NCBI GenBank assembly: GCA_964596535.1
Contig: CAZQUR010000004.1
Span: 33-64,032 of the forward strand
DNA: 64,000 bases
From: an uncultured Desulfobacteraceae bacterium
Lineage (GTDB): Bacteria > Desulfobacterota > Desulfobacteria > Desulfobacterales > UBA2156
Direction of reading: 5' to 3'
Shown here: positions 5,178 through 55,905 of the stretch, one piece after another
How the letters are laid out: each line of letters begins with the position of its first letter
Position numbering within the stretch: the stretch's first letter is position 1
The notes under the pieces: model-generated
The model's input: only the letters and a program-made list of their open reading frames with translations
Database searches by the model: none
Told to the model about the DNA's origin: nothing
Translations under genes and position numbers: made by a program

Positions 5178-5227
5178 GCCTGACGCCAGCATCGCGTTCA
5201 CGCGTCCAAATTCAGGAGACACGCATC

Positions 5228-6967: not shown

Positions 6968-7004
6968 GCCATTCCTCCCATAATAAACCACAGGATGTTG
7001 CATT

Positions 7005-7020
7005 GATGTTGCGAAACATC
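7005..7020. promoter_or_regulatory. inverted repeat GATGTT-GCGA-AACATC, candidate activator-binding site
   Basis: Exact 6-bp arms. Preceded by a direct copy of GATGTTGC at 6994-7001. Lies ~180 bp upstream of the sigma-54-type promoter. Confidence 0.3.
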
Positions 7021-7080
7021 GTTTCAATTTATTTTAACTAACTATTTTAATTATAATTTACTCTATCTACACACCTCAAC

Positions 7081-7274: not shown

Positions 7275-7745
7275 TTGAGTCCCAAGCTTGCGGAAAAAAC
7301 GATCATTATCGTTTCTGATGAACTGAATATGCGCATTTTTCTTTGCAATATTTTGGGCAGCTGCGGTTATGCGCCTGTTGATGCCGGGAGCCGTAAGGAG
7401 GGAATGCAAAAAATCAAAACCGAGAAACCGGCGCTCATCATCCTCGATGTCATGATGCCCAAAGAGAGCGGCGTCCAGATGTATCGTGAACTCATGGATG
7501 ACGAAGAGCTGAAATCCATTCCGGTGATTCTCTTGTCGACCATCGATAAAAAAACGTTCTCTTATTACCATAAATTCCGAAGTGCATCCCTGGACAATGA
7601 TTTTTTCAAACCGGGCGCCTATCTGGAAAAACCGTTTGAGGCCAACACCCTCATTTCGCTTGTAAACGGCATGGTCTCATCGGGGGAAGGCCGCATCGCA
7701 GATCCTGTAAGCGAGTCCACTCGAAAAAAGACAGGGTTGTTTTGA
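7275..7745 (+). CDS. single-domain response regulator (CheY-like receiver)
   Basis: TTG 7275 after AGAGG. Motifs IIIVSDELNMR, LIILDVMMPKESG, YLEKPF. No output domain. Confidence 0.8.
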   Translation: MSPKLAEKTIIIVSDELNMRIFLCNILGSCGYAPVDAGSRKEGMQKIKTEKPALIILDVMMPKESGVQMYRELMDDEELKSIPVILLSTIDKKTFSYYHKFRSASLDNDFFKPGAYLEKPFEANTLISLVNGMVSSGEGRIADPVSESTRKKTGLF

Positions 7746-7800: not shown

Positions 7801-10089
7801 ATGAATGAAAACATTGATTCCAAATTGTATCAAGAGGTGGCACAATTCGGAGCGATGGATATGGAGATCTGCATGCAGTGCGGCACCTGCAGCGCATCCT
7901 GTCCATTGTCGAGCGGAACGAATCCGTTTCCCCGAAAGATATATCGATATCTCCAACTTGGAATGAGGGACAAGCTCCTCAAGTCGTCCGAACCCTGGCT
8001 GTGCTACTACTGCGGAGAGTGCAACAAGGACTGTCCCAGAGGCGCCGAACCGGCTGAAACCATGATGGCGACGCGACGCTGGTTGACCGCCCAGTACGAC
8101 TGGACAGGACTTGCCAAGAAACTCTATCTCTCCGAAGCATGGGAAATCACCGCGCTGGGTTCTGTTGCGCTTTTCATCATTTTACTTTTCGTTTTCTTCC
8201 ATGGGCCCATCATTACTGATCGCGTTGCAGTCAATACCTTCGCGCCCGTCTTGTGGATTGAAATCGGCGATCTGGTCATGGCCGCAATTTTGTCGACGTT
8301 TCTGCTGTCAAACGCCTTCAGAATGTATCGTTTTATCATGGATGGCACCCAGGTGCCGTTCCGGCTCTATCTCACGCAAGCCAAAGCCTTTGTCCTGCAC
8401 TTTTTAACGCAGAAGCGATGGCGGGAATGCGGAGAAGATCGGAGTCGATGGATCAAGCACCTTCTCCTGGTGACCGGTTATTTGACCATGATGTCCCTGA
8501 TCATCATTTTCATCCGCTGGTTTCAGGTGGATGACGACAGCTGGCATTTTACAAGTCTTTTCGGCTACTATGCCACCGCGGTCCTTTTAATTATTACCGT
8601 AGAGATGTTCGTCAGCCGCCGTAAAAAACAAGAGACGATTCATCGGTACTCCCACCTGTCCGACTGGCTTTTTCTGATCCTGCTGTTTTTCACCACATTG
8701 ACCGGTATCCTGATGCATCTGGTCCGCATCGCCGGATGGCCCATGGGAACCTATGTCATGTATGTGATCCACCTCGCTGTGGCAGTCCCCATGCTGGTCA
8801 TCGAAGTCCCCTTCGGAAAATGGTCTCACCTCTTCTACAGGCCGTTGGCGGTGTTTCTGGCAACCGTCAAGGAGAAGGCGGATAAAGAGTCAAACATCCA
8901 CGTCGAAGATGTAAAAGCCGAGATCGGCGATACCTTCCTGACCTGTCTGCAATGCGGCACCTGCACGAGCGTCTGCCCTGTGAACATGATTTCATCCAAT
9001 AGTCCGCGCCGGATTCTGCGTCAGCTCACAATGGAAACCGGTACAGAGCAGTCCGTCGACCAAGCCGTCTGGAGCTGTGTCACCTGCAACGCCTGCGGGG
9101 CAAGTTGTCCCCGAGGCATACCGATGATCAACGTCATAAAAGCGGTCAGGGAACTCAACGTCGCCGGCGGAATAGTCCCTGAGATTTTCGAGGCGCCGCT
9201 GAACAGCCTGAAAGAAAACGGCAATCCCTGGAACGGACTGCGCGAAAGACGGATGGAATGGGCGGAAGATATCCATATCCCCCCCTTCCGGCCCGAGCAT
9301 GCGTACTGCCTTTTCACGTGCTGTACCACGGCATATGATCCCGCGAATCGCAATGTCGGCAAAGCCCTTCCCCGTCTCCTTGAGTACGCAGGTGTTTCTT
9401 TCGGCACTCTCGGAATCGAAGAAAATTGCTGCGGAGACCAGGCCCACAAGATGGGAGCGCAGGCAATCTTCTCTGATCTGGCCCGGAAAAATACCGAACT
9501 TTTCTTGCGTGCCGACGTCCGAAAGATACTGACCGTTTCACCCCATTGCCTGAACGCCTTTAAAAACCATTACACCGATTTGAGAGGTTTCGTCGGCACC
9601 GAGCACTATTCCGAACTCCTGGACCGGCTCATCGAGGAAGGCCGGTTAAGACCTCTCCTGGAGGTGGCGTCCACCGTCACCTATCATGATCCGTGCTATT
9701 TGGGCCGCCATAACGGCATCTACGAGGCGCCGCGCCGCGTTTTAAAAAGCATTCCGGGCCTGAACCTGATTGAAATGACAAACAATAGAGAATGCAGCCT
9801 GTGCTGCGGAGGCGGCGGCGGCGGGGCGTGGACGGATTGTCCGCCTCGTCATGGCCCCGGTGCAATGAGGATCAAAGAGGCTCTGGAAACCGGCACCGAG
9901 ATGATTGCCACCGCATGCCCCTTTTGCATCCGAATGCTCGATAACGGCATACGGGAACTCGGCGTTGAAAAAGAAATCGCTGTCTGCGACGTGGCCGACT
10001 TGCTGTTACGGTCGGTTGTGGTGAAGGATGAAACTACTGTGATGAGACACATTGATTTGGGCGCAAGCCGGGAGGTCTGTCATGTCTGA
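7801..10089 (+). CDS. fused ferredoxin / multi-span membrane domain / HdrD-like (CCG-domain) Fe-S oxidoreductase
   Basis: ORF open from 7759 (TTG); ATG 7801 preferred. Four 4Fe-4S motifs (CMQCGTCSASCP, CYYCGECNKDCP, CLQCGTCTSVCP, CVTCNACGASCP). Several hydrophobic His-containing segments between them. Two CCG motifs (ENCCGDQ, SLCCGGGGGG). Confidence 0.85.
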   Translation: MNENIDSKLYQEVAQFGAMDMEICMQCGTCSASCPLSSGTNPFPRKIYRYLQLGMRDKLLKSSEPWLCYYCGECNKDCPRGAEPAETMMATRRWLTAQYDWTGLAKKLYLSEAWEITALGSVALFIILLFVFFHGPIITDRVAVNTFAPVLWIEIGDLVMAAILSTFLLSNAFRMYRFIMDGTQVPFRLYLTQAKAFVLHFLTQKRWRECGEDRSRWIKHLLLVTGYLTMMSLIIIFIRWFQVDDDSWHFTSLFGYYATAVLLIITVEMFVSRRKKQETIHRYSHLSDWLFLILLFFTTLTGILMHLVRIAGWPMGTYVMYVIHLAVAVPMLVIEVPFGKWSHLFYRPLAVFLATVKEKADKESNIHVEDVKAEIGDTFLTCLQCGTCTSVCPVNMISSNSPRRILRQLTMETGTEQSVDQAVWSCVTCNACGASCPRGIPMINVIKAVRELNVAGGIVPEIFEAPLNSLKENGNPWNGLRERRMEWAEDIHIPPFRPEHAYCLFTCCTTAYDPANRNVGKALPRLLEYAGVSFGTLGIEENCCGDQAHKMGAQAIFSDLARKNTELFLRADVRKILTVSPHCLNAFKNHYTDLRGFVGTEHYSELLDRLIEEGRLRPLLEVASTVTYHDPCYLGRHNGIYEAPRRVLKSIPGLNLIEMTNNRECSLCCGGGGGGAWTDCPPRHGPGAMRIKEALETGTEMIATACPFCIRMLDNGIRELGVEKEIAVCDVADLLLRSVVVKDETTVMRHIDLGASREVCHV

Positions 10090-13000
10090 GCGCATCGGAT
10101 TTTATATATGCCACTGCGGCATCAATATCGCTTACCGGGTCAGGGTTCAGGAAGTGGCCGAGTATGTGGCGAAATTTCCGAATGTGGCAATCTCAAGGGA
10201 TTACCTTTTCATGTGTTCCGATCCCGGCCAGGAACTCATTGAAAAAGATATCCGGGAGCATCATCTCACCCGCGTTATCGTGGCCTCCTGTTCTCCGCGG
10301 ATGCATGAAAAAACCTTTCGGGCGGCCTGCCAGAGGGCGGGGCTCAACCCTTACCGGACATTTCATATGGTGTGTGTGCGCGAACATGTCTCGTGGGTCA
10401 CCGAAAATGAAGACGAAGCCACCGAAAAGGCCAAAAACCTGGCCAGAGCCGGTCTCTTGCGCGTGGTGCACCAATGCGAATTGACCCCTGCAACATTTTC
10501 GGTATGCACCAATACCCTAATTGTGGGCGGAGGGATCGCCGGCATGCAGGCAGCCCTGGATGTGGCCAAGGCCGGATTCAACGCCTATCTGGTTGAGCGA
10601 CAACCTACAATCGGAGGGCACATGCTCCAATACGACAAGACCTTCCCCACCCTTGACTGCGCGGCGTGTATCGGCACACCCAAAATGGTTTCCGTGGGTC
10701 AGGAGTCCCAGATCCGGTTGCTGACGCATAGCGAAGTGGAAAACGTTAGCGGGTTCATCGGCAACTTCAGGGTCAGCGTTCGGCGAAAAGCCCGTTACGT
10801 CGAAACGAATTGCACCGGATGCGGCGAGTGTGAAAAGGTCTGCCCCATCGATTTTCCCAACCTCTGGGATGTAAACACCAAAACCAGAAAGGCCATTTAC
10901 CGGCCCTTCCCCCAGGCCGTACCGATTACCTACTGCATCGATAAATACGACCGCGCTCCCTGTGTTCAGACCTGCCCGGCCGGAACCAACGCGCAAGGCT
11001 ACGTCGCGCTGATAAAGACGGGTAAATACCGGGAAGCGTTGAGCCTGATCATGGAACGCCTGCCCTTGCCCGGCACCCTGGGTCGCGTGTGCCCGGCACC
11101 GTGTGAAGACGTCTGTCGCAGATCCGAAGTGGATGAGGCCGTCGCCATCCGCGATCTGAAGCGATTTGCGGCCGACCAGGTGGATCTTCTGGAACTGCCG
11201 CTGCCGGATATCCAGGATCGGCCGGAAAAAGTGGCCGTGATCGGATCCGGTCCGGCCGGCCTAACGGTGGCGCATTACTTGCGGCTGAAAGGCTATCAGA
11301 TCACCATTTTTGAAGCGTTGCCGGTGCTGGGAGGCATGCTCCGTGTGGGCATCCCCGACTATCGGCTTCCTCCTGAAATCCTGGATCGCGAAATTCAAAA
11401 CACACTCCGAATGGGAATCCAGGCCCAAACGAATCAGAAGTTCGGGGTCGATTTCAGTCTCGATGACCTGAGAAAGCAGGGTTTCAAAGCCATCTTCTTC
11501 GGAATCGGCGCCCACCACAGTCTGAAGCTGGGTATTAACGGGGAGGAAGAATTCCAGGGCGTGATGGATGCGGTCGATTTTCTCCGGGAAGTCAATCTGG
11601 GCAGTCCTAGGCCTCCCGGCAAACGGGCGGCAATCATCGGCGGAGGCAATGTGGCCGTCGATGCCGCCCGAGCCGCTTTGAGGACCGGCTGTGGAAAGGT
11701 GGATATCGTTTATCGTCGCAGCAGAGAGGAGATGCCCGCCTATCCGGAAGAAATCGAAGGCGCGATCGCCGAGGGCGTGAAAATCCACTTTCTGACAGCC
11801 CCGATCGCGATCCGGGGGGAAAGCGGCAGGGTCGCAGGAGTGGAATGCATCCGAACCGAGTTGGGTCCCCCTGATGACAGCGGGCGACGACGCCCTGTGC
11901 CAGTGGAGGGTTCCGAGTTTGTAATCGAGGCCGATGCGATCATTCCCGCCATCGGGCAGCAACCCGACTTTGACTGGCCTGCCGAAAGACAGATTCTGGA
12001 ACTCACGAAGCGCAAGACCATATCGGTGAATCCGCACACCCTGCAGACCAATTTTCCTGATGTATTCGGAGGCGGCGATGCGGTGAGCGGTCCGGCAACG
12101 GTGATCGAAGCGGTGGCCGCAGGCCGAAAGGCGGCAGAGGCAATCCATTCCTATATCATGGGAGAGGATATGGAAACTTACGCACAAAAAGTCGCCACCC
12201 GGGAACCGATCGGCCAAAACTGGCGAGAATTATTTAAAACCACCCTAAAGAAAGAGAGAGCCCGGCTGCCGCATCTGAATGCATCCGAAAGTGCCGCCTC
12301 CTTTGCGGAGGTGATGTCGGGTTTTGGTGAGATCCAGGCTCGCGAGGAAGCGGCCCGTTGCGTCAATTGCGGCGGATGCTGTGAGTGCAAGCTCTGCGAA
12401 AGCGCATGCGAAGCCAAAGCAATCAATCACTCCATGAAAGATGAGATAGAAGAAATAGAGGTGGGTTCCATCATCGTCGCTACGGGCTTCGATCCCCTTG
12501 ATCCAACACCGATCCGGCAATACGGATACGGTCAGTACGCCAATGTTTTTACCAATCTGGAATTCGAACGCCTGTCGAACGCCACGGGACCCACCAAAGG
12601 AAAACTGCTGAAACGGGATCCGAAGGATCGTTTTAGCTTCACCGAGTCTCCGAAGAGCGTGGCAATCCTCCATTGCATCGGAAGCCGCGATTTAAATTAC
12701 CACGAATACTGTTCGCGCACCTGTTGCATGTATGCGCTTAAATATGCCCACCTCATAAAGGACAAGTGCGGTCATGATACCGAAGTCTATAATTTTTACA
12801 TCGATATGCGATGCTTCGGCAAAGGCTATGAGGAATTCTACAAGCGCGTTCAGAGTGAAGGCGTACGGATGGTTCGCGGTAAAGCCTCCCGGGTGGAAGA
12901 GAAGGACGGTATGCTGATCGTCACCGCAGAGGATACGCTGTCCGACCGGATGCTGAAAATTCCTGTGGAGATGGTGATTCTTTGTACTGCAATGGAAGCG

Positions 13001-13462
13001 CGTCCCGATGCAAACGAAGTGGCGCGCATCTTCGGAATCAGTATTGGAAGTGACGGATTCTTCCAGGAGGAGCATCCCAAACTCGAACCGGTTTCCACTC
13101 CCACCAGCGGCGTTTTTCTCGCCGGGGCCTGCCAGGGGCCTAAAGATATCCCCGACACGGTTGCCCAGGCAAAAGGGGCCGCCGCCGAGGCCCTCGCCCT
13201 TTCCGCCTCCGGAAAGGTATCGGTTTCTCCGATGGTTTCCTCCGTTGATCCTGATATCTGTATCGGCTGTCAGATTTGCATCGACCTGTGCGCATACTCG
13301 GCAATCGAGTTCAATCCCTTGAAAGGAATCAGCGAAGTAAACGAGGCCGTTTGTAAAGGCTGCGGAAGTTGCGCCGGCTACTGCCCGAGCGGCGCCGCGC
13401 AGATTCGTCACTTTACAAGCAAACAGATTTTTGCGGAAATCGACGGGATCTTGGTCGCCTGA
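10082..13462 (+). CDS. hdrA: HdrA-like flavoprotein fused with an internal GltD/NfnB-like NAD(P)H-binding module
   Basis: ATG 10082 overlaps the upstream stop (ATGTCTGA). Motifs GGGIAGMQAALDVA; HdrA signature HCIGSRD-x8-CSRTCCMYALK; CTGCGECEKVCP, CIGCQICIDLC, CKGCGSCAGYCP. GltD-like part at ~10960-12160: GRVCPAPCEDVC, VIGSGPAGLTVAHYL, IIGGGNVAVDAARAA, VFGGGDAVSGPATVIEAVAAGRKAA. Confidence 0.9.
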   Translation: MSERIGFYICHCGINIAYRVRVQEVAEYVAKFPNVAISRDYLFMCSDPGQELIEKDIREHHLTRVIVASCSPRMHEKTFRAACQRAGLNPYRTFHMVCVREHVSWVTENEDEATEKAKNLARAGLLRVVHQCELTPATFSVCTNTLIVGGGIAGMQAALDVAKAGFNAYLVERQPTIGGHMLQYDKTFPTLDCAACIGTPKMVSVGQESQIRLLTHSEVENVSGFIGNFRVSVRRKARYVETNCTGCGECEKVCPIDFPNLWDVNTKTRKAIYRPFPQAVPITYCIDKYDRAPCVQTCPAGTNAQGYVALIKTGKYREALSLIMERLPLPGTLGRVCPAPCEDVCRRSEVDEAVAIRDLKRFAADQVDLLELPLPDIQDRPEKVAVIGSGPAGLTVAHYLRLKGYQITIFEALPVLGGMLRVGIPDYRLPPEILDREIQNTLRMGIQAQTNQKFGVDFSLDDLRKQGFKAIFFGIGAHHSLKLGINGEEEFQGVMDAVDFLREVNLGSPRPPGKRAAIIGGGNVAVDAARAALRTGCGKVDIVYRRSREEMPAYPEEIEGAIAEGVKIHFLTAPIAIRGESGRVAGVECIRTELGPPDDSGRRRPVPVEGSEFVIEADAIIPAIGQQPDFDWPAERQILELTKRKTISVNPHTLQTNFPDVFGGGDAVSGPATVIEAVAAGRKAAEAIHSYIMGEDMETYAQKVATREPIGQNWRELFKTTLKKERARLPHLNASESAASFAEVMSGFGEIQAREEAARCVNCGGCCECKLCESACEAKAINHSMKDEIEEIEVGSIIVATGFDPLDPTPIRQYGYGQYANVFTNLEFERLSNATGPTKGKLLKRDPKDRFSFTESPKSVAILHCIGSRDLNYHEYCSRTCCMYALKYAHLIKDKCGHDTEVYNFYIDMRCFGKGYEEFYKRVQSEGVRMVRGKASRVEEKDGMLIVTAEDTLSDRMLKIPVEMVILCTAMEARPDANEVARIFGISIGSDGFFQEEHPKLEPVSTPTSGVFLAGACQGPKDIPDTVAQAKGAAAEALALSASGKVSVSPMVSSVDPDICIGCQICIDLCAYSAIEFNPLKGISEVNEAVCKGCGSCAGYCPSGAAQIRHFTSKQIFAEIDGILVA

Positions 13463-13540: not shown

Positions 13541-13963
13541 ATGAGTGAGTTTGAACCGACAATTGTGGCTTTTTTTTGCAACTGGTGCACTTACACAGCC
13601 GCGGACTTAGCCGGCACTTCTCGTCTGAACTATCCCCACAACATTAGAATCATCCGGGTCATGTGCACCGGCATGGTCGATACCCAATATGTCATTAAAG
13701 CGTTTTTGGAAGGAGCGGACGGCGTGCTGGTGAGTGGATGCAATCCCGGGGATTGTCATTACATCAACGGCAATTATAAGGCCCGGAGACGGATCAAGCT
13801 TCTCAAAGAGATTCTACCCCAATTCGGTTTTGATCAAGAACGGCTTCGATTAACCTGGATCGGAGCCAGCGATGGGGTTCACCTGGCTGAGGTCATTCGA
13901 ACCTTTGTATCACAAATCAAAGCCCTGGGACCGAGCCAGACAAAACTTAAAATGGCGATTTAG
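13541..13963 (+). CDS. mvhD: MvhD-like (methyl-viologen-reducing hydrogenase delta subunit family) Fe-S protein
   Basis: ATG after AAAGGAG. Motifs FFCNWCTYTAADLAG, RVMCTGMV, GADGVLVSGCNPGDCHY. Confidence 0.85.
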   Translation: MSEFEPTIVAFFCNWCTYTAADLAGTSRLNYPHNIRIIRVMCTGMVDTQYVIKAFLEGADGVLVSGCNPGDCHYINGNYKARRRIKLLKEILPQFGFDQERLRLTWIGASDGVHLAEVIRTFVSQIKALGPSQTKLKMAI

Positions 13964-14048: not shown

Positions 14049-15191
14049 ATGACCACCATGGCCAAAATCGACCTGAAGGAACAGAATCCTTTGGAAGCCT
14101 TGCAGCAGTTTTTTGCAGGCATTCTCAAACTGAAAGATGTCACGTCTATCCTGGTCCCCCAGCGGCTTCCAGCCCGAAACATGATTATGCCGACCCTGGT
14201 AACCGATGCCGCTCTCCTGGAAGGCGTTGATCCCCTTGCCCCGGCTTTCCCGATGAATGCCGCAAGAATCGCCTCCCGATTGACCCGGAAACCGATGGGT
14301 TCGAAAGTGGCGGCGGTGTTGCGCCCCTGCGAGATCCGGGCGTTCATCGAGCTGGTCAAACTGAATCAGGCTAAAAGGGAGGAGATTTTTCTCATCAGCA
14401 CGGATTGCCTGGGTGCATTTCCGAACAAAGAATACTTCATGTTTGCAGACCGGAATGGAGGAGAAGGAACCCTTGACTTTTATAAAACCATGCTGGGGGG
14501 AAACACCGGTGAAATGGAAGGGTATCCGCTGGCTCCGGCCTGCAAGGCATGCGAACATCCGATTTCCGAAAACGCGGATATTCAAATCGGTTTTTACGGC
14601 ATCAAGCCCGGCGAATCAATTCTGATCAAGTCTCAATCCGAAGCAGGAGATCGTATTTTACAGCAGATGAATCTCTCCACAACCACGGAACCAGCCGGCC
14701 GCCGGACCGCCATCGACACCCTCATCTCCCAGCGCATCCGTTACCGAGACGAAATGTTCGTCAAGACTCATGAGGCCATTGATAGCCTGGACAAGATGGA
14801 AACGTATTTCTCCAATTGCGTCAATTGCTACAACTGCCGGGTGGCTTGCCCGGTCTGTTATTGCAGGGAATGCGTCTTTGTCACAGACGTGTTCAACCAT
14901 GAACCTTCCCAGTATCTTCATTGGGCCGCCCGAAAAGGGATGATCAAAATGCCAACGGATACTCTCTTTTATCATCTCACTCGGCTGGCCCATATGAGTA
15001 CGGCGTGCGTGGGCTGCGGCCAATGTTCCAACGCCTGCCCCAATGACATCCCTGTCATGGAGATCTTCCGCACGGTGGCCCAACACACCCAGCAGGCCTT
15101 TGACTATGAAGCCGGGAAGCACCTCGAGGAAAAACCGCCTTTATCCGTTTTTCATGAAGATGAGTTTCAAGAAGTTGTGGGTATTTCATAA
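14049..15191 (+). CDS. FrhB/FdhB-family flavin-binding Fe-S protein with C-terminal 2x[4Fe-4S]
   Basis: ATG 14049 after GGAGG (ORF open from 13872). Motifs LRPCEIRAFIELV, ISTDCLGAF, CKACEHPISENADIQIGFYG (FrhB_FdhB_C-like); CVNCYNCRVACPVC and CVGCGQCSNACPND. Confidence 0.65.
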   Translation: MTTMAKIDLKEQNPLEALQQFFAGILKLKDVTSILVPQRLPARNMIMPTLVTDAALLEGVDPLAPAFPMNAARIASRLTRKPMGSKVAAVLRPCEIRAFIELVKLNQAKREEIFLISTDCLGAFPNKEYFMFADRNGGEGTLDFYKTMLGGNTGEMEGYPLAPACKACEHPISENADIQIGFYGIKPGESILIKSQSEAGDRILQQMNLSTTTEPAGRRTAIDTLISQRIRYRDEMFVKTHEAIDSLDKMETYFSNCVNCYNCRVACPVCYCRECVFVTDVFNHEPSQYLHWAARKGMIKMPTDTLFYHLTRLAHMSTACVGCGQCSNACPNDIPVMEIFRTVAQHTQQAFDYEAGKHLEEKPPLSVFHEDEFQEVVGIS

Positions 15192-15217
15192 AGCCAAAAC
15201 ACAAGGGAGATGCAACG

Positions 15218-16537
15218 ATGCCGCAAGAAGCCATTCAATTAACCCGGGAAAGACAAAGTCCCTTCATGGACAAAGTGGAAGCGCTCCTTCCGGAAGGAGG
15301 AAATCTCAATCTATGTCTGACCTGCGGGGCTTGCGTCTCAGGATGTCCGGCAAGCGGCCTGGAAGAAATGGACCCCCGGAAATTTTTGCGCATGGCTGCG
15401 TTGGGTTTGGATGACGAAATCCTGAAAACGGATTGGGTCTGGATGTGTTCCATGTGCCAGCGCTGCATCTATGTCTGTCCGATGAAGATCGACATCCCCC
15501 AGTTAGTCTATCAGGCCCGGGCGTCCTGGCCCAGAGAAACCCGCCCCAAAGGAATTCTGGGCTCCTGCGATATGGCGTTGAAAAACGATAGCTGCAGCGC
15601 CATGGGCGCATCGCCGGAGGACTTTGACTTTGTTGTCAACGACTTGCTGGAGGAATACCGGGAGGCCCAGCCCGAATTCGCCGAAATGGCGGCGCCCATC
15701 GATAAGGAAGGAGCCGAATTTTTCCTGAATCAGAATTCCCGGGAACCGGTAACCGAACCCGACGAATTGATCCCTCTTTGGAAAATTCTCCATGTCGTCG
15801 GGGCGGATTGGACCTATGGTTCCAAAGGATGGGGCGGTGAAAACTATTGCATGTTCCTGGCAGACGACTCGTCTTGGGAGCACATTGTCCGAACAGCGGC
15901 AAATCAGGCGGACGCTTTGAGGTGTAAAGTCTTTCTCAATACGGAGTGAGGGCACGTCACCTTCTCGGTCCTGGCAGGACTGAAAAAATTCAAGGTTCCG
16001 CATAATTTTATCGTCAAGAATATCTATGAATACTACGCCAAATGGATCCGCGAGGGAAAGCTGAAGGTCAACTCGGATTGGAACAAGGATCTGAAGATAA
16101 AATTTACGGTGCAGGATCCCTGCCAAATCGTCCGTAAAAGCTATGGAGATCCCATCGCCGAAGACCTTCGACTCGTGGTGAAATCCATCGTGGGAGAAGA
16201 AAATTTTATCGAAATGGAACCGAATCGATCCAACAATTACTGCTGCGGCGGCGGCGGCGGATTCCTTCAATCGGGATATAAGGACGCCCGTCTCGAGTAC
16301 GGGCGCATTAAGGACCGCCAAATCCAGGAAACCGGTGCGACATATTGCATTGCGGCGTGTCACAATTGTCACGCCCAGATTCACGAACTCAGCGAGCACT
16401 ATGGAGGAGGGTATCACGTAGTTCACCTGTGGACGCTCATTTGTCTTTCCCTGGGGATTTTGGGACCCAATGAACGGGAGTATCTTGGAGAAGACCTCAA
16501 GGAAGTCCTGGTCTTCCACCCGGAATCCGCTCATTAG
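15218..16537 (+). CDS. HdrC/HdrB-like fusion (4Fe-4S + CCG domains) with in-frame UGA read as selenocysteine at codon 244
   Basis: ORFs 15218..15949 and 16109..16537 share one frame. The only stop between them is TGA 15947-15949, and 15950-16108 is open and protein-like. Motifs CLTCGACVSGCP, CSMCQRCIYVCP, NTE-U-GH, DPCQIV...NYCCGGGGG...CIAACHNCH. Confidence 0.7.
15959..15996 (+). ncRNA. candidate bacterial SECIS stem-loop (mRNA element)
   Basis: Starts 10 nt after the UGA. Lower stem ACCUU(15959-63)/AAGGU(15992-96); upper stem GGUCCU(15967-72)/AGGACU(15976-81); G-rich apical loop GGC. Folded by eye only. Confidence 0.45.
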
Positions 16538-16617
16538 AAAGGGACAGCCGCACACCAGCATGCTCTGTGAGACAGAATATCGGAATAAGCCATACGTATT
16601 GAGTGAAAGGACGCACC

Positions 16618-19600
16618 ATGAACAGAAAAATCGGCACGGCATTAGTGGTCGGGGCCGGAATTGGCGGTATGCGGACCGCCATGGATCTGGCGGAATTCGG
16701 ATATGGAGTGACCCTGATCGACCGGGCTCCCCACCTGGGAGGCATTCTGAGCCAGCTCGATTATCAGTTTCCCACCGATCGTTGCGGCATGTGCAAAATG
16801 CTCCCGCTCATCGATCGGGACGTTTCGTCCCAATATTGCCTGCGGAAGGGTTTTACCCATGAAAATATCCACGTCTTTCTTTCCACCGAACTCATTTCCG
16901 TGGAAGGGGAGCCGGGGCGTTTCGGTGTCACTCTCAAACGAAAACAGAACTGGGTGGACCCCGCCCTCTGCGTTGGTTGCGGTCTTTGCACAGAAGTGTG
17001 CCCGGTGGAAGTTCCGGACACTTTCAACGCCGGACTGTCCAAAAGAAAAGCCATCTACCTTCCTGTTCCCCATGAGATACCGAACCCGTATATCATCGAC
17101 ATTGCCGCATGCAACCGGTGCGGAGAATGTGTGAAGGCCTGCCCGACCCATGCCATACGATTATCGGAACAGGAACGTAAAAAATTCCGTATCCTGGTGG
17201 TAGATGATGAGCTGATCGTCCGGGATTCGCTCAAGGAACTCCTTGAAAATGAAGGTTTTTTCGTCAACATGGCGGCCTCCGGAGCAGAAGCGCTGGATCG
17301 TTTGTCCGAAGCGCCATATCATCTGATGCTCACCGATATCAAGATGCCGGAGATGGACGGTGTTGAGCTTTTACAAAAAGTGCGGGAAACTTTTCCGGAT
17401 ACGACCGTGATCATGATGACGGCGTATGCAACCGTTGAAACCGCTGTGGAAGCGATGAAAATCGGAGCCGTCGACTATCTCATCAAACCATTTGAACCCG
17501 AAACCCTCATTCCCATGATTCTTAAAAAATACGAAGATTTTGAAACCGCCGGCGCCAGCCGGATAGAGGTGGGTGCGATCGTTCTCAGCGGCGGCACGGC
17601 CTACTTCGATCCCCGGAGCGGGAAAAACACCCTAGGTTACGGGATTTATCCGAATGTGATGACGAACATCGAATTCGAGAGAATTCTCAGCGGCTGCGGA
17701 CCCACCCAGGGCCGGCTCATCCGATTCGACGGCAAGCCGATCCGAAAAGCTGCATGGCTCCAGTGCATCGGCTCCCGGGACATCCAAATCGACGCCGACT
17801 TCTGCTCCAATGTCTGCTGCATGTTCGCCATCAAGGAAGCCCTGGTCGCCCAGAGACGGGCCGATGGGGATTTCGAAGCATCCATACTTTACATGGACAT
17901 GCGGACTTTCGGCAAATCTTTTCAGCGGTACCGGGACACTGCAGAGCAGGAGCACGGCGTTCGTTTTATCCGGGGACGCGTGCATTCCGTCACCCAGGAT
18001 CGCGGAACCGGAGACCTCTTGATCCGTTATGCGGATCCAGGCGGTCAAATGGTTGAAGTCGCCCAGGATGCGGTGATCCTTTCCGTCGGCCAGAGGCCGG
18101 CCACCGGATCGCAGGCGCTGGCGGACCTGCTTGGAATCCAGCTTAATCCATGGGGCTTCCATGAAAATCCTCCCTTCTCCGTCACTCGAACCTCCCGGGA
18201 AGGAATCTTTGTGGGGGGTTCGTTTTCCGGTCTTAAGGACATTTCGGATTCGGTGATCCACGCCTCTGCCGCAGCTCTCTCCGCTTCCCGAATTCTGCAT
18301 GCCTCAGGAGGCAGCTTGACACCTCAACCGTCGCCAAGCGTCGAACTCCGGGATGTAACCCGGGAATCCCCATCCCTTCTCATGACCCTTTGCACCTGCA
18401 ACGGCGCCATCCTTGACGAAACCGTCAAAGCGGCCCTAAAGACGCATTTTACATCCGATCCGGATGTGGCTCAAGTGGAGTATGCGGAACAAATCTGCAC
18501 CACTGAAGGATGGACGGGATTGTCTAAGCTCGCAAAAACTCGCCGGCCGAACCGGATTCTCATCGGAGCCTGTCTTTTCAACGGATACACCGGAAAACTG
18601 AGGGAACTGAGCATGGAAACAGGGCTCTCTTCCGCCTTAATGGAAATGGTCGATATCGGGTCTCCGGTATTTTGCGTCAAAGATGCTCCGAAAGAAAAGT
18701 ATGAGGCGACCCTGGAACGGATCCTCAAAATCGGCATCACCAGACTCAAAAATGTCGATCCCGCCCCCAAGGCGCCCACCCGTATCCAGCAGAGGGCGCT
18801 GGTGGTAGGCGGCGGCATCGCGGGCATGAGCGCAGCCCTTGCCGTCGCCGATCATGGTTATCCCGTGGATATTGTGGAACAGGACACCCAGCTCGGTGGA
18901 AATCTTTCCTGGATCAAGAAAACCATCGAAGGCCACGATACCCAGTCGCTGCTGGAAGAAACGCTTTCCCGTGTGGAAAAGCATCCGAATATCCGCGTGC
19001 ATACCGAATCCCATGTCTTGGAGGCCTTCGGACAGGCGGGACATTTTATGACGAATATTCAAAACGGCGCAAAGGAAATCAAAACCATCACGCACGGCGT
19101 TGCGATCTTGGCCACGGGTGGCATTGAAGCCCGGACCCAATCTTATGGCTACGGTACATCCGAAACCATCGTGACGCAGAAGGAGTTGGAACTCAATCTT
19201 CACGAAAACCGGATAGACGCTGCGAAGTTAAAATCAGTGGTGATGATTCAATGCGTCGACTCGAGGGAAGAACCCCGCAACTATTGCAGCCGCATCTGCT
19301 GTGTGTCGGCGCTGAAAAATGCGCTTTATTTGAAGGAAAAGAACCCGACTTGTAAAATCACCATTCTCTATCGGGATCTGATGACCTATGGATTCTCTGA
19401 AACATATTATACCCGGGCTCGACGCGCCGATATCCTCTTTATGCAGTATGATCTGGAAAACAAACCCGCCGTCGTCCAGATGGATGACGACCTCCTGGTC
19501 AAAGCGCATGAACCGATTCTCGATCGCCAAATTCAAATAGGGGCGGATCTGGTCGTTCTGGCGACCGGCATTGTGCCGACACTCCCGGTGACTCTCGCTC

Positions 19601-20034
19601 AGGTTTTCGGAGCCTCAATCGATCCGGATGGCTTTTTCCTGGAAGCGGAATCGAAATGGCGGCCGGTGGATTCCCTCAAAGACGGGGTCTTTGCCTGCGG
19701 TATCGCTCATTCGCCCCGTTCCATCACCGAATCCATCGCAACGGCGGAGGCGGCCGCCCAGCGCTCCCTTCGGATCCTGAATCAGGAAAGCATCCCGACG
19801 AGCAGGGTGACCGCCATCGTCCGTCACAGCCTCTGTAGCCTCTGCGAGCGATGTATCGAAGCCTGCCCATACGGCGCCAGGACATTCAATTTGGATCAAA
19901 CCCAGGTGCAGGTCAATTCCCTGATGTGCCAGGGTTGCGGGACGTGTGTTTCGACTTGTCCGAACGGCGCTTCGGTGTTGGAGGGATTCCGAAAACAACA
20001 GATGTTCGATGTCATCGATGCGGCGCTCATATGA
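16618..20034 (+). CDS. tandem HdrA-like flavoprotein with an embedded CheY-type receiver domain
   Basis: ATG 16618 after AAGGA. Module 1: VVGAGIGGMRTAMDLA, CVGCGLCTEVCP, CNRCGECVKACP. Receiver at 17182-17545: RILVVDDELIVRD, LMLTDIKMPEMDG, MMTAYA, DYLIKPF. Then CIGSRD-x8-CSNVCCMFAIK. Module 2 from ~18787: VVGGGIAGMSAALAVA, CVDSRE-x6-CSRICCVSALK, CSLCERCIEACP, CQGCGTCVSTCP. Confidence 0.9.
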   Translation: MNRKIGTALVVGAGIGGMRTAMDLAEFGYGVTLIDRAPHLGGILSQLDYQFPTDRCGMCKMLPLIDRDVSSQYCLRKGFTHENIHVFLSTELISVEGEPGRFGVTLKRKQNWVDPALCVGCGLCTEVCPVEVPDTFNAGLSKRKAIYLPVPHEIPNPYIIDIAACNRCGECVKACPTHAIRLSEQERKKFRILVVDDELIVRDSLKELLENEGFFVNMAASGAEALDRLSEAPYHLMLTDIKMPEMDGVELLQKVRETFPDTTVIMMTAYATVETAVEAMKIGAVDYLIKPFEPETLIPMILKKYEDFETAGASRIEVGAIVLSGGTAYFDPRSGKNTLGYGIYPNVMTNIEFERILSGCGPTQGRLIRFDGKPIRKAAWLQCIGSRDIQIDADFCSNVCCMFAIKEALVAQRRADGDFEASILYMDMRTFGKSFQRYRDTAEQEHGVRFIRGRVHSVTQDRGTGDLLIRYADPGGQMVEVAQDAVILSVGQRPATGSQALADLLGIQLNPWGFHENPPFSVTRTSREGIFVGGSFSGLKDISDSVIHASAAALSASRILHASGGSLTPQPSPSVELRDVTRESPSLLMTLCTCNGAILDETVKAALKTHFTSDPDVAQVEYAEQICTTEGWTGLSKLAKTRRPNRILIGACLFNGYTGKLRELSMETGLSSALMEMVDIGSPVFCVKDAPKEKYEATLERILKIGITRLKNVDPAPKAPTRIQQRALVVGGGIAGMSAALAVADHGYPVDIVEQDTQLGGNLSWIKKTIEGHDTQSLLEETLSRVEKHPNIRVHTESHVLEAFGQAGHFMTNIQNGAKEIKTITHGVAILATGGIEARTQSYGYGTSETIVTQKELELNLHENRIDAAKLKSVVMIQCVDSREEPRNYCSRICCVSALKNALYLKEKNPTCKITILYRDLMTYGFSETYYTRARRADILFMQYDLENKPAVVQMDDDLLVKAHEPILDRQIQIGADLVVLATGIVPTLPVTLAQVFGASIDPDGFFLEAESKWRPVDSLKDGVFACGIAHSPRSITESIATAEAAAQRSLRILNQESIPTSRVTAIVRHSLCSLCERCIEACPYGARTFNLDQTQVQVNSLMCQGCGTCVSTCPNGASVLEGFRKQQMFDVIDAALI

Positions 20035-20269: not shown

Positions 20270-22588
20270 ATGTTGACATGGCTGAAAAACATCCGTCACA
20301 GACTCGCGGCAAAACTGATCGTCATGATGGGAATAATTCTTGTCGGCAGCTTCAGCGTCTGGGCTCATTATAATCTCAACTTTCAGAAAACCAAATTGAT
20401 GGCTTACACCATAGAAAGCACGGACCGCCTTACCAATACCATCAAACTCGGCGCCCATTATTCCATGATGTCCAACAGCCGTGAAGATATCAATCAGATT
20501 ATCAAAAACATTTCAACGCAACCCGAATTCGAGCAAATCCGCATCTACAACAAGGTCGGGCAAATTAAATTTTCCAACAATTCCTCAGAGATCAACCAAA
20601 CCACCAACATCCGGAATGAGGCCTGCATCATTTGCCATCAGACGGATCCGCCGAGAACTCAGGTCGGTCTTTCCGAAAGAATACGGGTGCTCGATTCAGA
20701 CAAGGGCTATCGCATCCTCGGAATCATCAGCCCCATCTATAACGAGCCCGCTTGTGCTAGTACCGATTGTCACTTTCATCCGGAGGAAAAAAAGATTTTG
20801 GGCGCTCTGGATGTCGTGATTTCCCTGGAAGCACTCGATCAAGAAATTGTCCGGGCTGAAAAGAACTTCGTCGTCTTTTCGGTAGTCGTCTTCACCGTGA
20901 CGTCCACCATAATTTTTCTCTTTGTTCTAAAGTTCGTCAACCAACCCATTAAAAAGATGATCAACGGCGCCAGGCGAGTCGCAAAAGGGGAATATTCCAG
21001 AGCCATTGAGATCGAACAAATCGATGAAATGAGTGAACTTGCCAACGCCTTTAATCATATGTGCAAAGAAATCCTCAAGCACGAAACCGAACTGAAAGCA
21101 AAGCAACGGGAATATCAAAATCTTTTCGAGTCGGTTCCATGTTTGATCACGGTGCAGGATCGGAATTTTACGCTCCTGAATTACAACCGTCAATTTTCCG
21201 ACATGTTCAACCCCACTCCCGGGGACTATTGTTTTCGTGCGTACAAGGGGCGCAACCAAAAATGCGATCCCTGCCCGGTGGAGGAGACATTCACCGATGG
21301 ACAATCGCACCACACCGAAGAAAGCGGCCCGGGAAAGGACGGAACCGTTCGATCCTGGATCGTCAGGACCTCCCCGATCGTTAACGAGAATGGCGAAATC
21401 GTCGCGGCCATGGAGATTTCCCTGGATATTACCGAGAGAAAAAAGCTCGAGTTCGATCTCTTAAAATCCGAAGAAAAGTACCACGCCATCTTCAACAACA
21501 TCCCGAACCCGGTTTTTGTATTGGACGCGGACAATTACGAAATCCTCGATAGCAATAAAAGCGTGAATACCGTTTATGGCTATGAAACGCATGAACTGCA
21601 GAATCTCCCCTTCTTAATTCTCTTTCCGGAAAAAGAAAGGATACATTATTCCTTCAAGCTGGCGGCGTCCCACATCCTCGATCGTGTCAAACAGATCCAT
21701 AAAAATGGAAAGGTCCTGTATGTCAACATTCGCATCTCCCCCTCCGAGATTTTAGAGAAAAAGGTGCTGCTGGTGACGACCAGCGATATCACCAAGCGTC
21801 TTGAAACCGAGCAGCAACTCATACAGGCAGGAAAAATGGCCACTCTCGGAGAAATGGCAACCGGCATCGCCCATGAACTCAACCAGCCCTTATCGGTCAT
21901 CAAGACCGTGAGCAGTTTTTTCATCGACAAGCTCCGGAGGAAAGAACCCATCGAGGAAAAAACCCTTTCTACCATGCTGACCAAGGTGGACAGCAATGTG
22001 GACCGAGCCACCCGGATCATCAATCACATGCGACAGTTCGCAAGAAAATCCGAAGTGGAGTTGGAAAGGATTCGGATCAACGATGTCATCCAAAACGCGT
22101 TGGAAATTTTCAGCCAGCAGTTGAAGGTCAAAGGCATCGAAATCGTACAACGGCTCGATCCCCAATTGCCTTCCATCCTGGCAGATCCCGGAAGGCTTGA
22201 ACAAGTGATCATCAATTTATTGGTCAATGCGCGGGACGCCATTGAAGAAAAATGGAACAGCACAGGTCGCCGGCAGGAAAAAGAGAGTATCGAACTGATC
22301 ACGCGGTACGAAAAAGAGCAAGCGGTCCTGGAAATCATAGACAGCGGGATGGGAATCCCTGAGGCCTTTTTGGAAAAGATCTTCGAACCCTTTTTTACCA
22401 CCAAGGAAGTGGGAAAAGGCACGGGTCTCGGCCTGTCCATCAGTTACGGGATCGTCGCGGAGTGCGGCGGCAAAATCGAGGCAAAAAACGTGAACGGCAA
22501 CGGCGCCTGCTTTATCCTGCGGTTTCCTGTTACAAAGGTCGAAAAATCGGATCCGCGTTTCAAGTATCTTCCACGTGTCGGCGGATAA
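20270..22588 (+). CDS. sensor histidine kinase: periplasmic domain with c-type-heme-like motifs, HAMP, two PAS, HisKA/HATPase
   Basis: ATG 20270 (GTG 20264 also in frame). TM-flanked ~180-aa domain with CIICH (20624-20638) and CASTDCH (20753-20773). H-box [38 protein letters not shown]. Confidence 0.9.
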
Positions 22589-22600
22589 AGGGCTTTATCG

Positions 22601-23746
22601 GTGGCTCAAACAGAAAAAAGCCAAACCATTTTACTCGTCGACGATGAAGAGGATATCCGGGACGTCCTGAACCTGGCCCTTTCCAGTTCCGGATACGATG
22701 TCCTAACCGCGAAGAACGGCGTCGAGGCCCTCCAGATTTTTACACAAACGCATCCACCCATCGTGTTGACGGATATCAAGATGCCCGGGATCATCGACGG
22801 TATCGAGCTGCTTCGGCGCATCAAAAATGAGAATCCGGATACCGAGGTCGTCATGATCACGGGTCATGGTGATATGGATCTGGCCATCCAAAGCTTGAAA
22901 AACGAGGCCACCGATTTCATCACCAAGCCCATTAACGTGGAAGCCCTCAAGGCGTCTTTGCAGCGGGTGGAAGAAAAAATCCTCATGAAGAGAAAGCTTC
23001 TGGAATACACCCAAAAGTTGGAAGCTTTGGTCCTGGAAAAGACGGAACTTCGGGATCGACTATCCTCCTTGGGCCTGATGATCGGCTCCATCTCCCACGC
23101 GATGAAAGGTCTGTTGACGAACCTGGATGCCGGTCTTTACCTTCTTGATTCTGGGATTTCCAAAAACCGTACGGAGCGGTTGAAGGAGGGGGTGGAAACG
23201 GTCCGGCAGACCGCCGGGCGCATTAAAAAACTGGTTCTGGATATCCTTTTTTATGCCAAAGAAAGGGAACTCAAAATCCGGTCCACGGCTATCGAACCCT
23301 TTGCGAATGAAGTGGCGGACATCATCGAAAACAAGATCAAGGAAAAACCAATTGAACTGGTCCGCAGTTTTAAGGCCGCCCCAAAGTCGTGGATGATCGA
23401 CCCCGATTTTCTCCGCACGGCCCTGATCAACGTCCTCGAAAATGCCGTAGATGCCTGTTGTGAGGACCCGGAAAAACCTTCCCATGAAATCCGATTTACC
23501 GTTGAGGAAAAAGACGGAGAACTCCTCTTCAATATTCTCGACGACGGGCCGGGTATGGACAGCGGCACCCTGGAAAAGGCGTTCAATTTATTTTTCTCCA
23601 CAAAAGGCCCCAAAGGGACGGGCTTCGGTCTTTTCATTACGGATAACATCATCAAACAGCACGGGGGTCGGATTCAGGCCCATTCTTCAAAAGGGAAAGG
23701 CACCCAGCTCTGCATCCGGATTCCTTTTCCGGAATCGAATCCCTGA
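22601..23746 (+). CDS. hybrid receiver-histidine kinase
   Basis: GTG 22601. Receiver ILLVDDEEDIRD, VLTDIKMPG, FITKPI. Kinase IGSISHAMKGLL, NVLENAVDA, DDGPGMD, GTGFGLF. Confidence 0.85.
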   Translation: MAQTEKSQTILLVDDEEDIRDVLNLALSSSGYDVLTAKNGVEALQIFTQTHPPIVLTDIKMPGIIDGIELLRRIKNENPDTEVVMITGHGDMDLAIQSLKNEATDFITKPINVEALKASLQRVEEKILMKRKLLEYTQKLEALVLEKTELRDRLSSLGLMIGSISHAMKGLLTNLDAGLYLLDSGISKNRTERLKEGVETVRQTAGRIKKLVLDILFYAKERELKIRSTAIEPFANEVADIIENKIKEKPIELVRSFKAAPKSWMIDPDFLRTALINVLENAVDACCEDPEKPSHEIRFTVEEKDGELLFNILDDGPGMDSGTLEKAFNLFFSTKGPKGTGFGLFITDNIIKQHGGRIQAHSSKGKGTQLCIRIPFPESNP

Positions 23747-23757
23747 ACCAAAATTCG

Positions 23758-24114
23758 TCAACCCTTGGAAGAATGCAGCTTTTTATGTTCGCAGGCGGCA
23801 TTCATCTTGATGAGCAGTTCTTCAAACGTCACCGGTTTGATGAGATAGTCAAAGGCCCCGTATTTCATTCCTTCGATGCTCGCCTCGAGAGACGCATGAC
23901 CGGTGAGCATGATCACCTGGACATCGAAACGGATCTTTTTGATCTCTTTAAGGGCCTCGATCCCGTCCATGCCGCCGGGCAGCTTGACGTCCAGAACGAC
24001 GATGTCACAGGCGTTTTGCTTCAAGAACGCCAAACCTTCTTCTGCGCTGGTCACACCCGTTGCCTTCAGCTTGCGGCGGCACAATCGGTTGACGATCGTT
24101 TCAAGAAAGTCCAC
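23758..24114 (-). CDS. single-domain response regulator; true start probably upstream of the first canonical start codon
   Basis: Motifs VVLDVKLPGGMDG, IMLTGHAS, DYLIKPV. The frame stays open upstream of GTG 24114 and encodes ...FFRVLIVDDE, the conserved receiver N-terminus (compare paralogue 31183-31617, MGTFSVLIVDDEIDF). Confidence 0.75.
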   Translation of the reverse strand: MDFLETIVNRLCRRKLKATGVTSAEEGLAFLKQNACDIVVLDVKLPGGMDGIEALKEIKKIRFDVQVIMLTGHASLEASIEGMKYGAFDYLIKPVTFEELLIKMNAACEHKKLHSSKG

Positions 24115-24172
24115 TTCGTCATCGACGATCAGTACGCGAAAAAAATTTATCGGATGTTCTCCCTTCCGGCGA

Positions 24173-38985: not shown

Positions 38986-39039
38986 GGATTCTTTCATTCA
39001 ATCACCTTTCCCTTGCCCATTCGATCAAAGGCATCGGTC

Positions 39040-39777: not shown

Positions 39778-39813
39778 CCCATCGGGCTTGCACGGCCCGG
39801 TAGTAAGGGACCC

Positions 39814-43750: not shown

Positions 43751-44003
43751 GGAAATCATCGAAAAAATAAACACGGCGTTGGCCGGGGAATTCGAGCTGG
43801 ACGAGGCGTCCATGGTGCCTGAGGCGCATCTTTTCGACGACCTGGAACTCGACAGCCTGGACCTGGTGGACATGGTGATTGTCCTGGAGCAAACCTTTGG
43901 ATTTAAAATCCGGGAAGAAGAAGAAATCCGCAGCATCCGGACCCTGGGAGATATTCACGCCTTTGTCATCCGCAAGCGACACCAGAGACTTCAAAGTTCC
44001 TAA
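43740..44003 (+). CDS. acyl carrier protein (ACP 1)
   Basis: GTG 43740 overlapping the KS stop. Phosphopantetheine site DLELDSLDLVDMV. 87 aa. Confidence 0.8.
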   Translation: MTDKEIIEKINTALAGEFELDEASMVPEAHLFDDLELDSLDLVDMVIVLEQTFGFKIREEEEIRSIRTLGDIHAFVIRKRHQRLQSS

Positions 44004-52318: not shown

Positions 52319-52347
52319 ATTCCCTTTTGTAACAGACGTGATCCTTC

Positions 52348-55886: not shown

Positions 55887-55905
55887 AACCTTGCATCCGA
55901 TACCC

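Follow-up and report, generated by a model that had tools for sequence, protein, structure and literature searches.

A predicted selenocysteine-containing HdrD-like protein encoded across an in-frame UGA in an uncultured Desulfobacteraceae bacterium

Introduction

The GlpC/HdrD family of selenoproteins is reportedly traceable to work by Kryukov and Gladyshev in 2004. Two later sources list 'Fe-S oxidoreductase (GlpC)' as a bacterial selenoprotein family (PMC1794560; PMC13188914), and a tabulation of 2006 has it among 25 such families. In the second source, a 2026 review, the family is named "Fe-S oxidoreductase-like protein" (PTHR43551), carries the selenocysteine (Sec) motif "UGH" and is grouped with selenoproteins found by bioinformatics (PMC13188914). 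In Desulfobacterium autotrophicum HRM2 a Sec-containing hdrD4 is annotated, together with HdrL-MvhD-FdhB-HdrD/HdrA loci, a full selABCD set and a tRNA-Sec (PMC2702500). The subject of this study is a gene of this kind on 64,000 nucleotides of DNA from an uncultured Desulfobacteraceae bacterium (assembly GCA_964596535.1, contig CAZQUR010000004.1, positions 33 to 64,032), hereafter the window. An initial annotation of this DNA had joined two consecutive open reading frames (ORFs) at 15218-16537 into one protein similar to the HdrC and HdrB subunits of heterodisulfide reductase (Hdr), with an in-frame UGA as the Sec codon, and had pointed to Hdr-type selenoproteins reported from deltaproteobacterial genomes. 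The descriptions of the GlpC family with its UGH motif (PMC13188914, PMC1794560) and the annotated hdrD4 (PMC2702500) bear this out.

The window gene is a new member of a selenoprotein family already described, Fe-S oxidoreductase-like (GlpC)/HdrD, because motif, architecture, type of selenocysteine insertion sequence (SECIS), operon context and taxonomy all match. Like the window gene, GlpC/HdrD selenoproteins combine Fer4 and CCG domains, have a U-G-H motif with Cys in the homologues, carry the SECIS within the coding sequence, are clustered with hdrA and mvhD (frhD family) and are found in sulfate-reducing or syntrophic Desulfobacterota. Nothing essential differs; in the window cluster only hdrD is interrupted, and no frhG/frhA hydrogenase genes are adjacent. 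D. autotrophicum HdrD4, compared by description only, is likewise a soluble fusion of HdrC and HdrB with Sec, encoded beside HdrL, MvhD and an FdhB/FrhB-like gene. The window derives from a metagenome, and its organism is an uncultured microbial-mat bacterium. Family, Sec motif and operon context are thus already published and no new biological principle is involved. What is added here is a correction of the annotation, strong covariation evidence for SECIS elements of this class and a hypothesis on the structure around Sec.

Results

A single reading frame with one in-frame UGA

The elements of the gene are as follows.

15218..16537, + strand: gene for an HdrD-like protein (HdrC+HdrB fusion), predicted selenoprotein, 439 codons, stop codon TAG at 16535-16537
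15204..15209, + strand: Shine-Dalgarno sequence AGGGAG, read from the sequence, 8 nt 5' of the ATG at 15218
15947..15949, + strand: in-frame UGA, predicted Sec codon, residue 244 in the motif LNTE-U-GH
15965..15983, + strand: 8-bp hairpin, predicted bacterial SECIS, with 5' arm 15965-15972 UCGGUCCU, loop 15973-15975 GGC and 3' arm 15976-15983 AGGACUGA

It is highly probable (roughly 0.93) that 15218-16537 is a single gene for a Sec-containing HdrD-like protein. Translation of 15098-16600 gave a single frame from the ATG at 15218 through the TAG, interrupted once, by the TGA at 15947-15949. The upstream ORF (15218-15949) has 243 codons and the downstream ORF (16109-16537) encodes 142 aa from a GTG start; their frames are identical (16109-15218 = 891 = 3x297), as the initial annotation had stated. 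The 53 linker codons at 15950-16108 (translation GHVTFSVLAGLKKF...KIKFT) are free of stops, and ATG, GTG and TTG are all absent among them. Direct inspection of the sequence revealed no Shine-Dalgarno-like motif before the GTG at 16109. The linker had also been credited with the first cysteine of the C-terminal CCG motif. This is wrong, as that residue, Cys-302 (codon 16121-16123), already belongs to the second ORF, five codons in.

Three independent Logan assemblies contain this gene unchanged, TGA included, and the best genome-level orthologue has a DNA identity of 82%. Gene callers give proteins of 243 and 142 aa in the three assemblies and also split the TGA-interrupted orthologue at both further loci with calls inspected, as had been predicted for automated annotation. 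TGA is the commonest ordinary stop codon in the window (19 of the 33 confident genes); a globally recoded genome, in which TGA would not be a stop, was rejected because so many genes terminate at it. These gene calls amount to a reading of the TGA as a true stop that separates two subunits, a 243-aa HdrC-like ferredoxin and an HdrB-like CCG protein initiated at GTG 16109. Besides the frequency of TGA as a stop, this reading is favored by the methanogen HdrC and HdrB, which are separate polypeptides from separate genes.

The UGA occupies an invariant cysteine column

A search with the 439-aa product against 5.8 billion proteins (E <= 1e-10) yielded 2452 homologues. The best 120 of these were aligned with MAFFT, and all conservation counts for the protein refer to this alignment. 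They are single full-length chains of 412-532 aa (mostly about 435) with 56-78% identity to the query at 93-100% coverage. The alignment against homologues that had been proposed as a check shows Cys at the TGA column in 120/120 sequences, inside an invariant LNTE-C-GH, and Gly-245 and His-246 of the U-G-H motif are also invariant.

To see the distribution of the TGA form, one genome per species in GTDB (596 Gb) was scanned with the DNA pattern [FY]LNTE-TGA-GHxT. The pattern was found in at least 120 species-level genomes, with about one chance match expected by our own estimate. Among the matches listed, all are orthologues of the window protein on both sides of the TGA, about 195 codons are open after the TGA wherever the contig permits, and the taxa are only Desulfobacterales, Desulfobulbales or unclassified "Deltaproteobacteria". 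Cultured carriers include Desulfoluna spongiiphila AA1 (with two copies), Desulfoluna limicola, Desulfobacter latus, Desulfocicer vacuolatum, Desulfoprunum benzoelyticum and Desulfopila sp. IMCC35006. The nearest relatives of the window protein are Sec forms, with a median identity of 78% compared with 67% for the Cys forms.

Coding constraint beyond the TGA was assessed in 106 Sec-form genes. Codon periodicity persists: in codons +15 to +40 the third position has an entropy of 1-2 bits, and the first and second have 0-1 bits. The first in-frame start after the TGA ranges from 3 to 89 codons. Since the start position varies to this extent while the periodicity continues, no site for re-initiation is conserved, and selection acts on the linker as coding sequence. 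This makes two separate subunits very unlikely. The 53 linker codons, described in the initial annotation as open and protein-like, are indeed conserved as periodic in-frame protein in over 100 orthologues, and their counterpart in the single-chain Cys homologues is the central part of the chain. GTG 16109 lacks a Shine-Dalgarno sequence, a break at the TGA would split a strand from a helix inside one predicted domain, and a covarying hairpin specific to the TGA form would be left without a role.

A covarying hairpin follows the UGA

The initial annotation had placed a stem-loop at 15959-15996. The core hairpin at 15965-15983 is upheld by the comparative data, whereas the outer stem is not. 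The following counts refer to 119 distinct orthologous segments aligned without gaps. Standard pairs fill 97.9% of the cells of the hairpin, and sliding the 3' partners by 1-3 columns leaves only 19-45%. None of 500 column shuffles attained the observed percentage paired, double-change pairs and cells, or covariation score. Compensatory double changes are found at four of the eight pairs. The loop-closing pair (columns 32-36) is G-C in 58, U-A in 51 and G-U in 7 sequences, the basal pair (columns 25-43) U-A in 95 and G-C in 12, and pair 27-41 A-U in 95, G-U in 17, U-A in 5 and G-C in 2. The switch at the loop-closing pair converts Leu CUG to Arg CGG and is coupled with a synonymous change in the following codon; the pairing is therefore kept at the expense of the peptide. 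Synonymous sites in codons +6 to +14 are frozen, with a third-position entropy of 0-0.8 bits, the loop position excepted. The first loop base (column 33) is G in 119/119 sequences; at the second (column 34), at least 90% have G and the others U. The outer pairing 15959-15963/15992-15996, on the other hand, is only 60.8% paired, over 80% of the orthologues lack two of the five pairs, and the extended stem was rejected as part of the element since it is not conserved.

The published bacterial SECIS model (bSECISearch) has a loop of 3-9 nt, a stem of 4-16 bp, a G in the first two loop positions, a distance of 16-37 nt between UGA and loop, and a minimum free energy of -7.5 kcal/mol or lower (PMC13188914); the loop G usually precedes G or U (PMC13188914 Fig. 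2). The window hairpin agrees with the model on all four counts, with a 3-nt loop on an 8-bp stem, the loop G, 23 nt between UGA and apical loop (15950-15972) and -9.5 kcal/mol for the 19 nt alone. Across 125 Sec forms the mean hairpin energy is -10.3 kcal/mol (standard deviation 1.0, worst -6.6). The equivalent 19 nt of four Cys-form genes reach only -1.3 to -4.7 kcal/mol, and the hairpin is absent from them. Two of these four controls are tandem paralogues, each beside a Sec form of its own genome that encodes a near-identical peptide (SVRAGIKKF versus SVRAGLKKF). The fold check suggested at the outset thus ends in a hairpin that both fits the published model and covaries, and the sequence comparison predicts that 15965-15983 functions as a bacterial SECIS.

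Two uses follow from these alignments. The pattern [FY]LNTE-TGA-GHxT together with a CAGUCC-N-GGN-N-GGACUG hairpin provides a rule for repairing annotations, with at least 120 species-level genomes concerned, and the covarying alignment of 119 sequences could seed an RNA model for a SECIS class that has no Rfam family.

Domain architecture and the Sec site

The protein features discussed below are encoded as follows.

15314..15478, + strand: two ferredoxin-type CX2CX2CX3C motifs, C33/36/39/43 and C77/80/83/87
15848..15850, + strand: invariant Cys-211 (GENYC)
15953..15955, + strand: invariant His-246 of U-G-H
16121..16369, + strand: complete C-terminal CCG motif, consisting of C302, 39 residues, C342-C343-GGGGG, 37 residues and C381-H-N-C384

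With U replaced by C, Pfam places Fer4_8/Fer4_17 at residues 30-91 and CCG at residues 297-388, and both Fer4_8 (2.4e-10) and CCG (3e-12) are over the gathering score. Residues 8-118 align to the HdrC chains 8rvv_C and 5odc_C (E down to 2e-16), and residues 280-416 to the C-terminal CCG domain of HdrB (HdrB residues 141-270). The eight ferredoxin-type cysteines are invariant and, judged by the alignment to HdrC, are the predicted ligands of two cubane [4Fe-4S] clusters as in HdrC. The five cysteines of the C-terminal CCG motif (Cys-302, Cys-342, Cys-343, Cys-381 and Cys-384) are conserved to at least 99% and are predicted to hold a noncubane [4Fe-4S] cluster as its five ligands.

In the degenerate N-terminal CCG-like domain, canonical ligand positions are filled only by Cys-211 and Sec/Cys-244. 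Cys-211 is present in 120/120 homologues, is the only cysteine remaining at the 'CC' position and aligns with the CC of ENCCGD in a paralogue encoded at 7861-10089 of the window. It is the likely partner of Sec-244. The initial annotation had equated NTE-U-GH with SPHC of this paralogue, which holds only approximately. BLASTP sets residue 244 about 14 residues upstream, and anchoring by hand on the shared histidine brings it opposite Ser, not Cys.

A structure model was obtained with AlphaFold2 for a Cys homologue (P0001, 78% identical; predicted local distance difference test (pLDDT) 86.7, predicted template modelling score (pTM) 0.88). The model shows a single folding unit that spans the Sec site, and strand 238-241/C244/helix 245-257 mirrors strand 376-379/C381/helix 382-395. 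Because the order of strand, residue and helix repeats that around Cys-381, Sec-244 is the topological equivalent of the first cysteine of the CxxC. An hhalign comparison of the N-terminal CCG-like region with the C-terminal CCG domain gave no significant alignment, and residue 244 was therefore placed by predicted secondary-structure topology. A Foldseek search of the PDB with the model returned Mycobacterium smegmatis EtfD (9ojn) as the best match (E = 7e-10, TMq 0.67), followed by HdrB chains with about 300 columns aligned.

The N-terminal CCG domain of EtfD holds a linear [3Fe-4S] cluster on Cys503, Cys538, Cys581 and Cys584, and His583 of the sequence C581-x-H583-C584 completes the coordination of the noncubane cluster of the other CCG domain (PMC13083937). 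This C-x-H pattern is fitted both by U/C244-G-H246 and by S-P-H-C of the paralogue; the suggested correspondence of His-246 to EtfD His583 does not derive from a residue-by-residue alignment. The protein, the family profile and the C-terminal 250 residues were each searched against PDB sequences; no match covered the N-terminal CCG-like region, and that to EtfD was confined to the ferredoxin part. For this reason, the equivalence of Sec-244 and EtfD Cys581 is one that we infer. By analogy with EtfD, His-246 would ligate the noncubane cluster, with Sec-244 and Cys-211 directly beside it. Sec thus takes the place of the first Cys in a degenerate CCG domain and stands two residues ahead of this putative cluster-ligating histidine, which yields a concrete mechanistic hypothesis that can be tested.

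The 439-residue protein is most probably soluble and joins a di-[4Fe-4S] domain of HdrC type to a CCG module of HdrB type. During its synthesis the hairpin in the coding sequence would bring SelB-GTP-Sec-tRNA(Sec) to ribosomes that pause at the UGA at 15947-15949, which would be read as Sec-244; the selenium insertion itself is predicted. According to the mechanistic hypothesis, Sec-244 would lie next to the catalytic cluster and could pair with Cys-211 as a redox-active selenenylsulfide/selenolate, by which a disulfide, heterodisulfide or trisulfide substrate would be attacked or resolved, with the HdrA/HdrL-MvhD module as the putative electron source. Alternatively, Sec-244 might ligate iron directly. 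In its full form the proposal is speculative and rather doubtful. It states that the second noncubane site has been reduced to a Cys-211/Sec-244 pair beside the remaining cluster, that His-246 acts as a ligand in the manner of EtfD His583, and that a disulfide or trisulfide might be reduced via a cluster-coupled selenenylsulfide, similar to ferredoxin:thioredoxin reductase but on an Hdr scaffold, unless Sec is a direct selenolate ligand; tandem Sec/Cys paralogues in other genomes would then be selenium-dependent isoenzymes.

Comparison with other Hdr-type proteins

Methanogen HdrBC (PDB 5ODC, 8RVV, 7BKB) shares the HdrC-type di-cluster domain and the five-cysteine C-terminal CCG domain with the window protein. 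The latter, in contrast, is a single chain, and because its N-terminal CCG domain retains two of five ligands (Cys-211 and Sec-244) it cannot hold a second noncubane cluster. HdrBC and HdrD are distinguished by an HdrC-type part with two cubane clusters, which the window protein has, and by two complete CCG motifs (C-X31-39-CC-X35-36-CxxC), of which the C-terminal motif alone is complete. A canonical HdrB/HdrD identity was rejected on account of the degenerate motif. The substrate should also differ from that of HdrBC because coenzyme M/coenzyme B metabolism is not expected in the window bacterium.

EtfD (PDB 9OJN) resembles the window protein in the [C/U]-x-H that follows the N-terminal CCG strand and in the fold of its soluble part. 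EtfD has, however, five transmembrane helices, heme b and the linear [3Fe-4S] cluster on four cysteines, and the window protein has Cys or Sec at two of those four positions. The window protein begins directly with the HdrC-like domain, and no membrane domain was matched in Pfam or NCBIfam, transmembrane helices not having been explicitly predicted. EtfD identity was rejected on the basis of the missing membrane-domain match and the two of four linear-cluster ligand positions filled.

The best named NCBIfam models were TmcB (1.6e-50, 172 bits), HmcF (7e-49, 167 bits) and DsrK (7e-33, 114 bits). These HdrD-like cytoplasmic subunits of membrane complexes of sulfate reducers have the same domain order and come from the same type of organism. 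The scores are far under the equivalog cut-offs of 735, 750 and 400 bits, respectively, and identity with any of the three was rejected. No tmc, hmc or dsrMJOP genes were found near the window gene.

Assessment of the proposed Sec protein

Taken together, the Sec/Cys column, the covarying SECIS and the coding selection past the TGA argue for one Sec-containing HdrC/HdrB-like protein, as first annotated. Several points weigh against it or against the role assigned to Sec-244. None of selA, selB, selD and tRNA-Sec, nor any other tRNA, was found in the 64-kb window, and the Sec-decoding capacity of the organism is deduced from its relatives and from a SECIS that is intact and conforms to the consensus. 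Rfam returned nothing relevant, either for the whole window at gathering scores or for 15900-16100 at E <= 10, a result that is considered uninformative. The putative catalytic role of Sec-244 draws on the secondary-structure topology predicted for a Cys homologue and on an EtfD equivalence that is unaligned by sequence. Lastly, Cys-117 is invariant and Cys-236 is 97% conserved, and both could provide further ligands and alter the picture of the site.

The lack of sel genes in the window also speaks in favor of the idea that the UGA is read through without Sec. By near-cognate decoding or Cys insertion, a full-length protein with Cys or Trp would be made, for example after loss of the Sec machinery or under selenium starvation. 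This is improbable to about the same degree as the two-subunit reading, given that the SECIS is intact at -9.5 kcal/mol, conforms to the consensus of the 125 Sec forms and is retained in the same sequence in all three independent assemblies. Related Desulfobacterales have a full selABCD set and dozens of selenoproteins (PMC2702500), and a lineage without Sec machinery would be expected to fix TGT or TGC, as in the Cys paralogues. A pseudogene, or a stop codon produced by sequencing or assembly error, is a generic reading of any interrupted ORF with nothing specific in its favor, and it is scarcely credible in view of the identical TGA in the three assemblies, its recurrence at the corresponding codon of orthologues in at least 120 genomes, the absence of other lesions in the window gene and the purifying selection on either side of the TGA.

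Gene neighborhood

The gene for the proposed Sec protein, hdrD(Sec), is part of a cluster with the following members.

7275-7745: response regulator
7861..10089, + strand: paralogue, fusion of a QmoC-like membrane domain and an HdrD-like domain ('HdrF' type)
10082..13462, + strand: 'HdrL'-type fusion of HdrA and a GltD-like NAD(P)H-binding part
13541..13963, + strand: MvhD/FlpD-type electron-transfer subunit
14049..15191, + strand: FrhB/FdhB-like Fe-S flavoprotein subunit of 380 aa, directly upstream of hdrD(Sec)
16618..20034, + strand: HdrA-like flavoprotein with an inserted receiver domain, directly downstream of hdrD(Sec)

The cluster is preceded by a PAS/sigma-54 activator and followed by two histidine-kinase genes. 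In the paralogue, NCBIfam qmoC matches residues 20-365 (5e-71) and the C-terminal half is TfrB/HdrC/HdrB-like. It has 26% identity to the Sec protein and a nearly canonical N-terminal CCG domain (ENCCGD ... SPHC), and it matches the 'HdrF' type known from D. autotrophicum. The HdrL-type protein, of a type defined in D. autotrophicum (PMC2702500), was assigned by HdrA2 (4e-231) and PRK12771 (2.6e-155), the MvhD-type subunit by PF02662 (E = 4e-54), and the FrhB/FdhB-like subunit by FrhB_FdhB_C and Fer4. HdrL and MvhD families are frequently selenoproteins in related bacteria. Here both ORFs are uninterrupted, and HdrD is the sole TGA-interrupted gene of the operon. Elsewhere, HdrA/HdrL-like neighbors are present at 30 of the 58 Sec-form loci with enough downstream flank.

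The downstream HdrA-like protein (about 1140 aa; HdrA2 6e-197), encoded by an ORF of 1143 aa, carries a complete receiver domain (Response_reg at residues 197-306) between an N-terminal ferredoxin/FAD part and the HdrA core. The histidine-kinase genes that follow it are located at 20270-22588 and 22601-23746. The combination of a receiver in HdrA with adjacent kinases suggests, from the sequence, that electron flow through the Hdr module may be controlled by phosphorylation.

Sec and Cys paralogues in other genomes

Tandem pairs of a Sec and a Cys form were observed at two loci. In Ca. Magnetomoraceae gMMP-15 (locus L124), a Sec form at 3924-5250 lies beside a Cys form at 5701-7023, and in an ENA metagenome contig (L125), a Cys form at 8001-9320 lies beside a Sec form at 9822-11140. 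Among the Cys forms, these tandem copies are the nearest to the Sec clade (76-78% identity), and they have lost the hairpin, with -1.3 and -2.8 kcal/mol compared with -10.6 and -9.6 kcal/mol in their Sec partners. By analogy with Vhu/Vhc of Methanococcus, such pairs may be selenium-dependent isoenzymes.

A Cys-form homologue (67-70% identical to the window protein) is also found in Desulfonema magnum (CP061800.1; L126, 3687-9308), just downstream of DAO-etfB-etfA. This suggests that some Cys forms are linked to electron-transferring flavoprotein, while the Sec clade is often linked to HdrA/MvhD, and it is consistent with the EtfD-like fold.

Other features of the window

The window has 56% G+C, and long spurious ORFs are common. 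In a scan of the window for further TGA-joined ORF pairs, no second selenoprotein candidate stood out and the list consisted mostly of spurious GC-rich frames. An ORF of 480 aa at 23903-25345 (+ strand), which has no Pfam match, overlaps a dCache histidine-kinase gene on the minus strand (24173-25834) and is probably its shadow.

A large lipid/polyketide-like biosynthetic cluster occupies 39013-58468 (+ strand). At least six beta-ketoacyl synthase-like genes, arranged in pairs, are accompanied by genes for a short-chain dehydrogenase/ketoreductase (KR-type), an amine-oxidase-type flavoprotein, two acyltransferases, a GT2/DUF2062 glycosyltransferase, and LolA-like and MMPL transporters; a B12-binding radical SAM gene adjoins a gene for a B12-binding domain. 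In this composition it resembles aryl-polyene-type or other specialized membrane-lipid clusters.

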